This document shows, piece by piece, positions 39,015 through 53,336 of a DNA stretch of 64,000 nt. This DNA comes from Ruminiclostridium sp. GTDB lineage: Bacteria > Bacillota > Clostridia > Oscillospirales > Ruminococcaceae. The stretch lies in assembly GCA_017408635.1 (NCBI GenBank), contig JAFQUH010000006.1, positions 2,903 to 66,902 of the forward strand. Reading direction: 5' to 3'. Each line of letters starts with the position of its first letter. The stretch's first letter is position 1. The notes beneath the pieces were generated by a model. The model saw nothing but the letters and a program-made list of their open reading frames with translations. It made no database searches and was not told where the DNA came from. The position numbers and the translations under genes are program-made.

Positions 39015-39716
39015 ATGGAAACGATTTTAAAAGCGGTCAATATCACACGCAGTTTTAAAATCAACGATAAGACTACTGTTCATGCCTTAAAGGACATCAA
39101 TCTCGAGGTAGAAAAGAACAAGCTGGTGGTTTTAAGAGGTCGTTCAGGCTCGGGTAAGACCACGCTTATAAACATCCTAGGAGCATTGGACCGCCCCACC
39201 TCGGGCGAGGTTATCTTTGACGGAAAGACCATCACGGGACTTTCCGACGTAGGTATGGATAAGCTGAGAAGAAAGGAAATGTCCTTTGTATTCCAGTCGG
39301 TAGCGCTTATCCCGACAATGACTGCGTACGAAAACGTTGAGTTTGCAATGAGACTTACCGGCGCACCCTACTCCGAAAGAGTAAAGAGAGCGAAGGAATG
39401 TCTTATCAGAGTCGGACTTGAAAAGAGAATGCACCACAGACCGGGCGAGCTTTCAGGCGGTGAGCAGCAGAGAGTTGCCATAGCGAGAGCTATTGCAAAC
39501 AAGCCGAAGCTGATCTTTGCGGATGAGCCTACGGCGGCGCTGGATACACCCACGGGACTTGCGGTAATGAATCTCTTCAAGGAGCTTGTACGCTCTGACG
39601 GACTCACGATAGTAATGACGACACACGATACGGCAATGATGGATCTGTGCGATGTTGTTTACACCCTTGACGACGGCGTTATAACCGACGTAAAGGTAAA
39701 CGAAGAGGAAGGCTGA
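39015..39716 (+). CDS. ABC transporter ATP-binding protein, LolD/MacB/FtsE-like clade (ATPase 1)
   Basis: I moved the start to ATG 39015 (METILKAVNITRSF, AGAGGA SD). Motifs are GRSGSGKTT, LSGGEQQRVAIARA and LIFADEPTAALD. Confidence 0.9.
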   Translation: METILKAVNITRSFKINDKTTVHALKDINLEVEKNKLVVLRGRSGSGKTTLINILGALDRPTSGEVIFDGKTITGLSDVGMDKLRRKEMSFVFQSVALIPTMTAYENVEFAMRLTGAPYSERVKRAKECLIRVGLEKRMHHRPGELSGGEQQRVAIARAIANKPKLIFADEPTAALDTPTGLAVMNLFKELVRSDGLTIVMTTHDTAMMDLCDVVYTLDDGVITDVKVNEEEG

Positions 39717-39785
39717 TAAGGTTTTCCCGATAAAAAGTAATCGTTATCTCACAACAACACACAGATGCAGAAAGGAAGGTATCGT

Positions 39786-40748
39786 ATGCCACAAAGAGTA
39801 ATGCTTGCACCACCCGAAAACGTAATGGTGCAATGCGAAAATTTAGTTAAGATCTACAAGACGACGGACGTTGAAGTAATGGCTCTGCAGGGACTTGACC
39901 TTACGGTTGAACGAGGCGAGCTTATGGGCATAGTAGGTGCCAGCGGTAGTGGTAAATCCACCCTTCTCAATATGCTGGGCGCCCTTGATAAGCCTTCGGC
40001 GGGCAGTCTTTATGTAGATGGAAAGGATCTTCTGAAATTCGATGAAGAGGATCTGATAAAATACAAGAGAGAAACGGTAGGCTTCGTATGGCAGAACAAC
40101 GCCAGAAACCTTATTCCGTATCTGTCGGCTATTCAGAACGTCGAAATGCCCCTGCTTTTATCGGGACATAAAAATCGACACGAGAGAGCGACGGAGCTTC
40201 TCGAAATGGTAGGACTCGGAGCAAGAAAGAACTCCCTTTTAGGACAGCTTTCAGGCGGTGAGCAACAGCGAGTTGCCATAGCCATTGCTCTTTCCAATAA
40301 TCCAAGCCTGTTGCTTGCCGACGAGCCTACGGGTGCCGTAGACACCAAGACAGCGGCAATGGTGCTGGACGTGTTCAGAGATCTGAACAGACAGATGGGC
40401 GTTACGATAATCATCGTAACCCACGACACAAATCTTTCAAAGTCCATCGACCGAGTGGATGCGATAAGAGATGGCAGAACCTCCAGCGAAATGCTGAGAA
40501 GACCTGCTGCAAACCTCTCCTTCGACGAGCTGCAGAAGATGAACGAACAGCAGCGTGCCGAACACGAGGCTCTGATGAAAGCGAAGAGCGAACAGGAAGA
40601 GCTGGTCGTTATCGACCGTGCAGGCAGACTGCAGATTCCCAAAGAATATCTTGAAGCCCTTGGTATCAGGGGCGGAGATAAGGTGAGGGTAGAGCTGGAG
40701 GACGGAAGAATCTCCGTTTACAACTCCGACTTCAACCAGCGCCGATAA
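39786..40748 (+). CDS. ABC transporter ATP-binding protein, LolD/MacB-like clade, with C-terminal SpoVT/AbrB-like domain (ATPase 2)
   Basis: I prefer the start at ATG 39786 (AGGAAGG SD). Motifs are GASGSGKST and LSGGEQQRVAIAIA. The tail is ...VVIDRAGRLQIPKEYLEALGIRGGDKVRVELEDGRISV. Confidence 0.88.
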   Translation: MPQRVMLAPPENVMVQCENLVKIYKTTDVEVMALQGLDLTVERGELMGIVGASGSGKSTLLNMLGALDKPSAGSLYVDGKDLLKFDEEDLIKYKRETVGFVWQNNARNLIPYLSAIQNVEMPLLLSGHKNRHERATELLEMVGLGARKNSLLGQLSGGEQQRVAIAIALSNNPSLLLADEPTGAVDTKTAAMVLDVFRDLNRQMGVTIIIVTHDTNLSKSIDRVDAIRDGRTSSEMLRRPAANLSFDELQKMNEQQRAEHEALMKAKSEQEELVVIDRAGRLQIPKEYLEALGIRGGDKVRVELEDGRISVYNSDFNQRR

Positions 40749-52055: not shown

Positions 52056-52067
52056 GGAGGTGTAGTT

Positions 52068-53336
52068 GTGAGCGAAAAAGATTTAAACATGAATAATGAT
52101 TCCTTCGATGATTTACTCGTTGATAATAACGCCGCATCTGCACCCGTAGATGAAGCATCAGCAGAAGCTATCGGCGAAGCAATTGCCGAAATCAACGAAG
52201 AAGCGAAAGAGGAAACAAAGTCCATCGCTTCCGTATCTGCTGAGGAGCTTCAGTCAGGCGTTACTCCTATCGAGCGCAAGCAGTCACGTAAGGAAAAGAG
52301 ATTAGAAAAGAAGCAGGCTAAGGAAGCAAAGAATATCTACCACGTAAGCAACTGGCAGATTATCAAGAACTACCGCACCTACAACAAGCAGGAAAGAGCG
52401 CACTACAGATACATTTTCGGCAGAAGAATCGCTGAAAAGGTATGGCCTGTATTCCGTTTCCTCATTCTGTTCGGTCTGGGCTTCGTAATTCTCTATCCTC
52501 TGCTTTATATGCTTTCCACATCAATAAGACCTCAGCTCGAAATGACTGACCCTTCAGTTATGTGGATTCCTAAAAACGTCATCTTCTCAAACTTCGTAGA
52601 CGTATGGCAGGCTATCAAGTTCCCTGAAGTATTACTCAGAACAATTCTCATCAACGTGCTTTGTTCAGTAATCCAGGTTATCACCTGTGGTATCACAGGC
52701 TACGGCTTCGCAAGATTCAAGTTCAAGGGCAAGGGACTTATGTTCGGTATCGTTATCTTCCAGATTATCGTTCCCGTACAGGTAGTTCTTATCCCTCTGT
52801 ACATGCAGTTCAGACTTTTCGACGTATTCGGCTTATTCCAGCTTATCACAGGTGCGCCCCTTAACCTCGTTCAGTCACCCGCTGCACTTTATATGCAGGC
52901 ATTCTTCTGCAACGGTATCAGAGCAGGCGTGTTCATCCTTCTGTTCAGACAGTTCTTCAGAGGACTCCCCAAGGAGCTCGAGGACGCTGCATACCTGGAT
53001 GGTTGCGGCCCTGTAAAGACCTTCGTAAAGGTTATGATACCCAACGCAAAGACTTCCTTCTTAACAGTATTCATCTTCTCAATCGTATGGTACTGGAACG
53101 ACTCTTACGTAACAAGTATGTTCTTCAATGAGCCTTACACAATCGCTATGGAAATCGAAGGTATTGCTACCAAGATGATGATTTACTTCACCGGCGAAAC
53201 AAACGGTATGGCTTCCGACTATCTGGTATGGATCGAAGCAGGCTGTCTGCTCTCCCTCTTACCGATACTCATTATGTACATCTTCTTACAGAAGCAGTTC
53301 GTAGAAGGTGTTGAGCGTTCAGGTCTTGTAGGCTAA
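52068..53336 (+). CDS. carbohydrate-type ABC permease (MalG-like), pair 2, with ~125-aa charged N-extension
   Basis: GTG start after GGAGG. EAA loop ...LEDAAYLDGCGPVKTFVKVMIP...; an acidic then basic N-terminal region precedes the first TM segment. Confidence 0.85.
   Translation: MSEKDLNMNNDSFDDLLVDNNAASAPVDEASAEAIGEAIAEINEEAKEETKSIASVSAEELQSGVTPIERKQSRKEKRLEKKQAKEAKNIYHVSNWQIIKNYRTYNKQERAHYRYIFGRRIAEKVWPVFRFLILFGLGFVILYPLLYMLSTSIRPQLEMTDPSVMWIPKNVIFSNFVDVWQAIKFPEVLLRTILINVLCSVIQVITCGITGYGFARFKFKGKGLMFGIVIFQIIVPVQVVLIPLYMQFRLFDVFGLFQLITGAPLNLVQSPAALYMQAFFCNGIRAGVFILLFRQFFRGLPKELEDAAYLDGCGPVKTFVKVMIPNAKTSFLTVFIFSIVWYWNDSYVTSMFFNEPYTIAMEIEGIATKMMIYFTGETNGMASDYLVWIEAGCLLSLLPILIMYIFLQKQFVEGVERSGLVG

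Follow-up and report, generated by a model that had tools for sequence, protein, structure and literature searches.

Introduction

In Firmicutes, the CUT1 systems among the ATP-binding cassette (ABC) transporters normally use ATPases of the MsmX type, whose genes often lie at another site of the genome (PMC7658222, PMC5730181). Another described ABC system of relevance here is YknWXYZ of Bacillus subtilis, a peptide-toxin efflux or protection system composed of the Yip1-family protein YknW, the adaptor YknX, the MacB-type ATPase YknY and the FtsX permease YknZ (PMC4887032). In this work, we are discussing a ten-gene locus in which features of both kinds of system come together. It lies at positions 39015–53336 (forward strand) of a 64,000-nucleotide stretch of DNA from Ruminiclostridium sp. 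("the window"; GenBank assembly GCA_017408635.1, contig JAFQUH010000006.1, positions 2,903 to 66,902) and encodes two ABC ATPases (A1 and A2), a giant solute-binding protein (SBP), four permeases (P1 to P4), an NHL/TPR protein (NHL), a Yip1-family protein (Yip1) and a protein of the DUF5696 family.

The eight genes other than those for A1 and A2 constitute a core, an uncharacterised ABC importer module of the CUT1 (type I) kind that is ancient and widespread in Bacillota; in a literature search, no description of this core or of its ten-gene variant was found. With moderate confidence, we read the locus as a strongly and constitutively expressed operon for the capture, trimming and import of glycan at the cell surface, in which A1 and A2 would serve as the motor. 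A preliminary description of the window, based on its letters and a list of its open reading frames (ORFs), had proposed a conserved, uncharacterised envelope machine for glycan capture and import or for polymer handling rather than a routine sugar transporter. This view is supported by the present analysis and is refined to an eight-gene core, with capture and import favoured.

Layout of the Operon and Its Promoter

The ten ORFs are encoded on the same strand in the order A1-A2-SBP-P1-P2-NHL-Yip1-DUF5696-P3-P4, with intergenic gaps of 1–69 nt. The close spacing on one strand had been pointed out in the preliminary description, as had a total of eleven genes; the spacing is as described, the actual count is ten, and the components listed there also add up to ten. 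Upstream of A1, at 38822–38850 (forward strand), lies a promoter composed of TTGACA, a 17-nt spacer ending in TGT, and TATAAT. The perfect consensus that had been claimed for it is thus found as a 12/12 match to the hexamers, to which the TG of an extended −10 element is added. This 12/12 match is unique within 38400–54800, and A/T-rich, UP-like tracts are located 5' of it.

In the related loci described below, the pattern TTGACA-N14-TGN-TATAAT heads the cassette in 61 out of 63 cases, the remaining two having TATACT, with spacer and leader sequences that drift freely among loci. Because the hexamers and the TG are kept while the spacer varies, selection appears to act for very strong, probably constitutive transcription, and the operon is probably transcribed in this manner.

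The leader of about 160 nt was considered as a riboswitch or T-box; this candidate was rejected, since comparison of positions 38450–39100 with Rfam gave no family near threshold. Of 63 distinct leaders, 39 contain a TTTGT(G/A) motif 20–33 nt 3' of the −10 hexamer; the interpretation of this motif as an operator was likewise rejected, this proportion being too weak given the A/T-rich sequence. The end of the operon is marked by a bidirectional hairpin of the intrinsic type at 53502–53531, with a 13-bp stem containing eight G-C pairs, which is the sole strong terminator-like site from the promoter up to the gene that follows the operon.

For A2, SBP and NHL, the starts of the longest ORFs are probably too early. 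The likely start of A2 is the ATG at 39786 (Shine–Dalgarno (SD) sequence AGGAAGG), resulting in 320 aa, that of SBP is the GTG at 40819 (SD AAGGTGG), and that of NHL lies near 45891, also with an SD sequence. These three later starts are preferred because of the SD sequences and because the genes called in a close relative (L097) match the resulting lengths, including the 320 aa of A2.

Conservation in Uncultured Oscillospiraceae

For the homologue scan, an alignment of DUF5696 was compared with one genome per species of the Genome Taxonomy Database (GTDB), yielding 478 matched stretches in which a relative is encoded. The related loci (denoted by L numbers; a few contigs occur twice) were compared with the window by tblastn of its ten proteins. 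All of the best 80 loci are from uncultured Oscillospiraceae, namely "Ruminiclostridium" or Ruminococcaceae metagenome-assembled genomes (MAGs) from gut or rumen. In every sufficiently long locus the order of the ten proteins is the same, and A1 and A2 are found upstream of the SBP gene in 63 of the 64 loci that have at least 2.1 kb there, with a gap of 48–69 nt between the two ATPase genes. The flanks of the cassette vary by locus, with ribosomal protein operons, RNase H and EF-G among the neighbours. Gene order conservation outside the source genome, on which the preliminary description had made its view depend, is accordingly seen in 63 of 64 Oscillospiraceae loci and, for the core, in other families as well.

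Identity to the proteins of the window ranges from 71–98% for P1 and P2, 63–98% for A1 and A2, and 58–97% for Yip1, through 51–93% for P3 and P4 and 49–95% for SBP, to 42–92% for NHL and 38–86% for the DUF5696 protein. Neither a glycanase of a known CAZy family nor a regulator was found in the window or in the annotated flanks of the Oscillospiraceae relatives. Typical Oscillospiraceae cassettes are also carried by two MAG contigs recorded under the names Sodaliphilus sp. and Bacteroides sp. (L018 and L035), probably as a result of binning contamination.

The Eight-Gene Core in Other Lineages

The core, with the order giant SBP, permease, permease, NHL, Yip1, DUF5696, permease, permease, was found in Oscillospiraceae, Lachnospiraceae and Paenibacillaceae; in cultured Firmicutes, its eight proteins are orthologous to those of the window at 20–53% identity. 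Neighbourhoods of permease, Yip1 and DUF5696 genes in other Firmicutes, which had been mentioned in the preliminary description, do exist in Lachnospiraceae and Paenibacillaceae. On plasmid pNP243 of Butyrivibrio fibrisolvens D1 (WAA20_RS20545-20510), the core is accompanied by a histidine kinase/response regulator pair, GH43 and two extra SBPs, and the arrangement on an Acetatifactor contig is as in Butyrivibrio, with only the histidine kinase visible at the edge of the stretch. Its companions are LacI, two GH53 and an SBP in Roseburia, LacI, an SBP, GH113 and GH2 in Paenibacillus alkalitolerans, and LacI, an SBP and GH26 in Cohnella nanjingensis. The core loci of Lachnospiraceae and Paenibacillaceae are classic Gram-positive polysaccharide loci and, because the core sits in ordinary polysaccharide utilisation loci (PULs) in these lineages, glycan capture and import is favoured over polymer export.

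In Paenibacillus cellulosilyticus KACC 14175 (HUB94_RS00525-00490), a ugpC gene for a MalK-type ATPase (ABC_tran + OB_MalK + TOBE_2) is located 37 nt upstream of the SBP gene, which is the position taken by A1 and A2 in the window. As judged from the compared sequences, the core is the older unit and the A1/A2 pair is a lineage-specific add-on.

The ATPase Pair and Its Origin

A1 (39015–39716, forward strand) is an ABC ATPase of 233 aa resembling MJ0796, LolD and FtsE, without a C-terminal domain (ABC_tran, E 2e-35). A2 (39765–40748, forward strand; 327-aa ORF), which is 43% identical to A1, combines an ABC_tran domain (E 1.9e-32) with a coiled linker and a C-terminal tail of the MazE/AbrB (SpoVT-AbrB) type, matched by MazE_antitoxin at aa 282–316 (E 1.4e-5). 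For both ATPases, the best NCBIfam models are LolD, DevA, FtsE and MacB, at 211–223 bits, with MetN at 165–176 bits; a MalK/UgpC model is not among the 25 best models listed for either protein. The single-domain sequence neighbours of A2 in the Protein Data Bank (PDB) are MJ0796, LolD, MacB and YbbA, ahead of MetN, and MalK does not appear in the top 60. An OB_MalK/TOBE domain was not found in A1 or A2 with Pfam, and A2 is only 30% identical to Paenibacillus UgpC. Two ATPases of the LolD/MacB/FtsE clade, one of them with an AbrB-like tail, had been named in the preliminary description; NCBIfam, the PDB neighbours and the MazE_antitoxin match agree with this naming, and the possibility that both belong to the MalK/MsmX clade, raised there as a point on which the view might fail, did not hold.

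The subfamily is further marked by the sequence ADEPT(G/A)ALD after Walker B and LLN.LG after Walker A. Since about 65 orthologues of A1 and A2 retain the full set of catalytic motifs and the motif DRAGRLQIPKEYLEALGI.GGDKVRVELEDG.IS.Y in the tail of A2 is strongly conserved among orthologues, both proteins are taken to be functional and under selection.

Orthologues of A2 were searched by tblastn against annotated plasmids. The best match (58%, tail included) is the last ATPase of an FtsX-type operon of P. cellulosilyticus (HUB94_RS01205-01190), in which the genes for an ATPase, an HlyD-like adaptor, a 971-aa FtsX/MacB_PCD permease and the tailed ATPase are followed by an SBP gene. Further matches, at 45–49%, are from Streptomyces and Kitasatospora, where one or two large FtsX-like permease genes precede that of the tailed ATPase; in Streptomyces (OG778_RS34690-34675), the FtsX-like permeases are flanked by an A1-like and an A2-like ATPase. 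A1 is the reciprocal match of the first ATPase in the Paenibacillus (50%) and Streptomyces (47%) operons, and A2 that of the last. These reciprocal matches mark A1 and A2 as an orthologous pair whose native setting is an FtsX-type system. The SBP_bac_1 protein encoded after the tailed ATPase on the P. cellulosilyticus plasmid (L094, 9882–11444) is unusual beside a MacB-type system and may represent a stepping stone towards the gene arrangement of the window.

In the window, the permease genes usually found between the A1-like and A2-like ATPases are missing. Pfam gave no FtsX/MacB_PCD match in the ten locus proteins or in the rest of the window, in accord with the absence of an FtsX-like transmembrane domain that had been remarked on before, and none was found within 10 kb of the cassette in those related loci that had called genes or were scanned. 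An ATPase of the MalK/UgpC type is absent from the locus and from the rest of the window, and the operon contains no further gene for a nucleotide-binding domain (NBD).

The Giant Solute-Binding Protein and the Four Permeases

The SBP gene (40807–43935, forward strand; 1042-aa ORF) encodes an N-terminal signal or anchor, two β-sandwiches resembling carbohydrate-binding modules (CBMs) of families CBM6/35, a helical region and a C-terminal SBP_bac_1 domain. The matches to SBP_bac_1 (E 8e-23) and SBP_bac_8 (E 1e-23) are confined to aa 650–946, and the closest solved relatives are the sugar SBPs Lin1841 (E 4e-15) and Lmo0859. In the N-terminal region, the two β-sandwich modules are weakly related to each other (BLASTP, E 0.001), which substantiates the duplication suspected earlier; in relaxed Pfam scans of SBP homologues, weak matches to CBM_35 were obtained in 6/12 and to Golvesin_C in 11/12. 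The protein has a single hydrophobic segment (aa 15–33) with an ASA-E site and without a lipobox Cys.

All four permeases possess canonical EAA coupling loops. P1 (44004–44939, forward strand) is a type I permease of the UgpA/MalF type (NCBIfam UgpA, E 6e-13; EAA loop YEAGAIEG...) and P2 (44984–45847, forward strand) is of the UgpE/MalG type (BPD_transp_1, E 3.7e-12; UgpE, E 2.3e-26; EAA loop IEAAKLDGAS...). The second pair is formed by the UgpA-type P3 (50772–52055, forward strand; BPD_transp_1 and UgpA matches at aa 136–424) and the UgpE-type P4 (52068–53336, forward strand; BPD_transp_1, E 1.5e-14, and UgpE, E 8e-19, at aa 129–415), both with intact EAA loops. The two MalF/MalG-type pairs of the preliminary description are, thus, recovered as UgpA-like plus UgpE-like by NCBIfam, twice, and the N-terminal extensions that it had ascribed to pair 2 are present, with about 125 aa, on both P3 and P4. 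In P3, the extension consists of an acidic, Ala/Glu-rich low-complexity region followed by the basic motif RISYERKK.LYGYGF; in P4, a variable acidic region is followed by the conserved YHVSNWQI.KNYR.Y...E..HYRYIFGRR. By analogy with the generally known topology of MalF and MalG, both extensions would be cytoplasmic. They are kept across the Oscillospiraceae clade and are not found in the orthologues from Lachnospiraceae and Paenibacillaceae.

As regards membership of CUT1, a sugar-type SBP is present and a UgpA/UgpE heterodimer with EAA loops occurs twice (P1/P2 and P3/P4); a MalK/MsmX/UgpC-type ATPase with an OB/TOBE domain was not found in the window.

The NHL/TPR Protein and Yip1

NHL (45849–47774, forward strand) is a membrane protein with Pfam matches to NHL and TPR. 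It is composed of a signal peptide with the lipobox-like LAAC, a conserved strand motif, a coiled-coil and KP-rich spacer, a propeller, TPR-like helices and a C-terminal transmembrane (TM) segment at aa 611–629, which fits the exoprotein with its own C-terminal anchor that had been predicted. The AF2 model (pLDDT 76.8) has a generic six-bladed propeller whose best Foldseek matches are binding-type propellers (TRIM71, Thin and Brat; E 1e-14), with lyases and lactonases ranking lower. An enzymatic role of NHL was rejected, as most matches are of the binding type and those to lyases and lactonases are distant. The spacer at aa 75–190, an extra stretch of about 110 aa with a long helix and a Lys/Pro-rich part between the N-terminal motif and the propeller, is restricted to the window and its closest relatives, most orthologues (505–535 aa) being without it.

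The gene for Yip1 (47777–48415, forward strand) always follows that of NHL. Its product, described earlier as a Yip1 multipass protein, matches the Yip1 family with E 3.6e-15 and has five TM or hydrophobic segments. In P. cellulosilyticus (L089), NHL propeller, TPR and Yip1 are fused in one polypeptide of 719 aa, which points to NHL and Yip1 functioning together as a single membrane unit.

The DUF5696 Protein

The DUF5696 protein (48430–50769, forward strand; Pfam DUF5696, E 4e-147) had been recognised as a DUF5696-like exoprotein, which is what the Pfam match gives. It consists of an N-terminal TM segment or signal, an acidic linker and an ectodomain, for which a β-sandwich, a (β/α)8-barrel and a second β-sandwich are predicted, in the manner of the glycoside hydrolase (GH) families GH129 and GH101. 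Characterised members of these families act on mucin-type α-GalNAc and on carrageenan. With the AF2 model (pLDDT 75.6, pTM 0.80), the top Foldseek matches are the GH129 structures 5opq, 8rzk and 5wzn (E 1e-29 to 4e-24), among the GH129 matches being ZgGH129, the 3,6-anhydro-D-galactosidase of Zobellia (E 1e-29), and NagBb of B. bifidum (E 4e-26). GH101, GH36 and GH31 follow, and the GH129/GH101 matches extend to E 1e-15. The TM score reaches 0.75 on the target, at 13–15% identity in the structural alignment. At the sequence level, membership of GH129 or GH101 was not found, Pfam giving DUF5696 alone and no CAZy-type family being matched; a DUF5696 profile matches the ZgGH129 sequence marginally (E 1.5e-5), over three short colinear stretches.

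Among family members only 20–66% identical, D237 (in a PDGxG motif), D580, R588, N615, Y617 and N661 are invariant and D639 is nearly so. D580 and D639 come after the predicted barrel strands 567–571 and 624–626, and we infer from the model that they may be the nucleophile and acid/base pair of a putative glycosidase or transglycosidase. The family comprises 3,320 clusters at 50% identity (E ≤ 1e-30), and the literature search returned no paper on DUF5696. The earlier statement that no MalK-type ATPase, glycoside hydrolase or regulator is recognisable in the locus stands for the ATPase and the regulator; for the hydrolase it holds at the level of Pfam only, given the GH-like fold. That the middle genes are not standard characterised glycoside hydrolases was borne out, the DUF5696 protein being GH129-like by fold and by a weak profile match, and NHL having a generic propeller.

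Proposed Mechanism and Alternative Explanations

In the mechanism that we favour, glycan would be held at the membrane surface by the SBP, through its CBM-like modules, and by the propeller of NHL, with NHL tethered to Yip1 as a single membrane unit; the membrane-anchored DUF5696 enzyme would trim or debranch the glycan, and two translocators of the UgpA/UgpE type would take up the products. In the Oscillospiraceae clade, the neighbouring endo-glycanases and regulators would have been lost, and the perfect consensus promoter and the cytoplasmic N-extensions of pair 2 would have been gained. The A1/A2 pair would have been recruited from an FtsX/MacB-type transporter, with loss of its permease genes, to replace the MalK/MsmX-type ATPase. 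The A1-A2 heterodimer would then power import by docking on the EAA coupling helices of either permease pair or of both. That this heterodimer drives the permeases is most likely, because its genes lie between the promoter and the SBP gene, at the site of ugpC in Paenibacillus, and are adjacent to the core in 63/64 loci, and because the permeases need an NBD. More tentatively, and with less confidence than we place in the overall reading, the FtsE/LolD-type heterodimer transplanted onto type I permeases may be part of a two-channel supercomplex (P1P2 + P3P4), built around a Yip1/NHL scaffold, a CBM-bearing SBP and a new glycosidase family, in which the tail of A2 and the N-extensions of P3 and P4 would couple or regulate the translocators.

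Several observations weigh against this interpretation. The core is found in the company of mannanase, galactanase and GH43 loci, which is hard to reconcile with a single fixed specificity of the DUF5696 protein, and the AF2 models of NHL and DUF5696 are of moderate confidence (pLDDT about 76). The others concern the motor. The EAA loops of the A1/A2-bearing clade hardly differ from those of lineages using MsmX or UgpC, which gives no indication that they were re-tuned to a new NBD. At the position of an Arg in MalK/UgpC-type NBDs, A1 and A2 have Asn (LLNMLG and LINILG); this Arg is presumably R47 of MalK, which we take to pair with the EAA glutamate in MalFGK2. In two loci (L045 and L087), the identical promoter stands directly before the SBP gene and the core is without adjacent A1/A2, and in one member of the clade (L062) a gene for an MsmX-like ATPase is located 3.5 kb downstream of the cassette. 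Together with the partnership of A1/A2 orthologues elsewhere with FtsX/MacB_PCD permeases, these observations on the motor speak for a glycan importer that is energised by a shared MsmX-type ATPase encoded elsewhere. A1 and A2 would then not be the motor and would have an FtsX-type partner elsewhere or a regulatory or mechanotransducing role, with the AbrB tail acting on DNA or on the N-extensions. We consider this explanation rather unlikely, albeit the strongest of the alternatives, since it has to face the tight adjacency in 63/64 loci (gap of 48–69 nt, no FtsX within 10 kb) in spite of deep divergence, the co-transcription of A1/A2 with the SBP gene that follows from their location between the conserved promoter and this gene, the occupied ugpC slot of Paenibacillus, and the absence of a MalK-type gene from the window.

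The importer reading as such is challenged by the proposal that the machine recycles, remodels or places a wall or capsular glycan of the cell itself, constitutive expression reflecting envelope maintenance. It could draw on the lack of a regulator or catabolic GH beside the cassette in about 65 Oscillospiraceae genomes, the housekeeping flanks (ribosomal operons, SecY/RpoA, ABC-F) and the conserved perfect promoter, as well as on membrane parts that are highly conserved while exposed parts evolve fast; moreover, ATPases of the FtsE/LolD type are generally known to mechanotransmit to extracytoplasmic enzymes. However, the core of Lachnospiraceae and Paenibacillaceae sits in regulated plant-polysaccharide loci (GH43, GH53, GH26 and GH113; LacI or two-component systems), an SBP with EAA-type permeases is an importer architecture, and one Paenibacillus combines the core with an import ATPase of the UgpC type, so that we regard an envelope role as improbable. 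The idea that the locus is just a common sugar ABC transporter, its neighbours being unrelated genes that happen to share the strand, has in its favour that each component family is common by itself, but this explanation is barely credible: it is refuted by an eight- or ten-gene order that is identical in three Bacillota families with different flanks every time, and the NHL-Yip1 fusion also speaks against it. The glycan importer with A1 and A2 as its motor, therefore, is retained as the preferred reading.

Genomic Surroundings

Directly 5' of the cassette, at 36595–38499, an ABC-F protein is encoded (tandem ABC_tran with ABC_tran_Xtn and ABC_tran_CTD), which is also a neighbour in L001, L045 and L097. 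On the other side, the ORF at 53733–54614 (293 aa) was considered as an eleventh gene and rejected, as it lies past the terminator and is shared only with very close relatives such as L097; its product has about three internal repeats, one pair of which is 43% identical, and a weak match to Fe_dep_repr_C.

SecY, methionine aminopeptidase and RpoA are encoded at 7–13 kb of the window, which, for this reason, is assigned to the core chromosome. The reverse strand at 16053–19649 encodes a protein of 1198 aa with a Peripla_BP_3/4 sensor, GGDEF and EAL, a candidate for a sugar-sensing c-di-GMP enzyme by its domain composition. A motility and pilus block at 24193–34731 includes FlgK, flagellin, an 867-aa FliD and a pilin-like protein (N_methyl + DUF5023). 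Between 58000 and 64000, the G+C content drops from about 0.45 to 0.35–0.40, and two large ORFs at 59269–62206 (reverse strand), near sbcCD (55037–58938), have no Pfam match; this region may be a foreign segment beside sbcCD.

Significance and Comparison with Known Systems

Given its company of mannanase, galactanase and GH43, the core may be a general Gram-positive device for the uptake of large glycan fragments, with accessory surface proteins and a second translocator that are absent from textbook CUT1 systems, and with DUF5696 as a large candidate new glycoside hydrolase family. The Oscillospiraceae version would be a rare natural experiment in ABC modularity, in which a type VII-style ATPase pair takes a MalK-type slot; the operon is probably among the most expressed nutrient systems of abundant uncultured gut bacteria, and knowledge of its substrate could aid the culturing and ecology of uncultured Oscillospiraceae. 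If true, the more tentative reading of a two-channel supercomplex driven by A1 and A2 would amount to a natural cross-class NBD swap and would provide the first account of a widespread machine for glycan import in Gram-positive bacteria. The locus is of interest to ABC-transporter specialists for the possible NBD swap and the dual translocators, to glycobiologists for the large candidate GH family, and to gut microbiologists for a hallmark, probably highly expressed operon of uncultured Oscillospiraceae.

With CUT1 importers such as MalEFGK2, or AraNPQ and GanSPQ with MsmX, the locus has in common the SBP_bac_1 domain, UgpA/UgpE-like permeases and EAA loops. It differs from them in having two permease pairs per operon-encoded SBP, an SBP of about 1000 aa that contains a helical region besides two CBM-like modules, three obligatory membrane or surface proteins (NHL/TPR, Yip1 and DUF5696), an MJ0796/LolD-type ATPase pair with one AbrB-tailed member, and N-extensions of about 125 aa on pair 2. 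The core loci of Butyrivibrio and P. cellulosilyticus have the same gene order and orthologous proteins. In contrast to the window, however, core loci of the Butyrivibrio and Paenibacillus type are regulated PULs with GHs and extra SBPs and with either no ATPase or one of the UgpC type, and core loci of other lineages lack the N-extensions of P3 and P4; a perfect-consensus promoter of the searched pattern was not found in these other-lineage loci. The window thus carries a version of the core that is stand-alone, A1/A2-bearing and, from its promoter, probably constitutive.

To the two-ATPase systems of the FtsX/MacB type (type VII), the locus is linked by A1 (47–50% identical) and A2 (45–58%, tail included), whereas it lacks both the FtsX permease and the membrane-fusion adaptor, its ATPase genes being adjacent to each other and followed by a type I importer module. 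The DUF5696 protein shares a predicted three-domain architecture with a central barrel with GH101 and GH129 (NagBb α-N-acetylgalactosaminidase and the Zobellia enzyme), at 13–15% identity, yet unlike these it is membrane-anchored and an obligatory part of a transporter operon. To our knowledge, no bacterial Yip1 protein has been connected with an ABC system except in YknWXYZ, which differs in type from the present locus. Both there and in the window, a Yip1 protein is encoded together with a MacB/LolD-type ATPase; the window, however, has neither the adaptor nor the FtsX permease, and its Yip1 is part of the importer core, also in lineages without A1 and A2.

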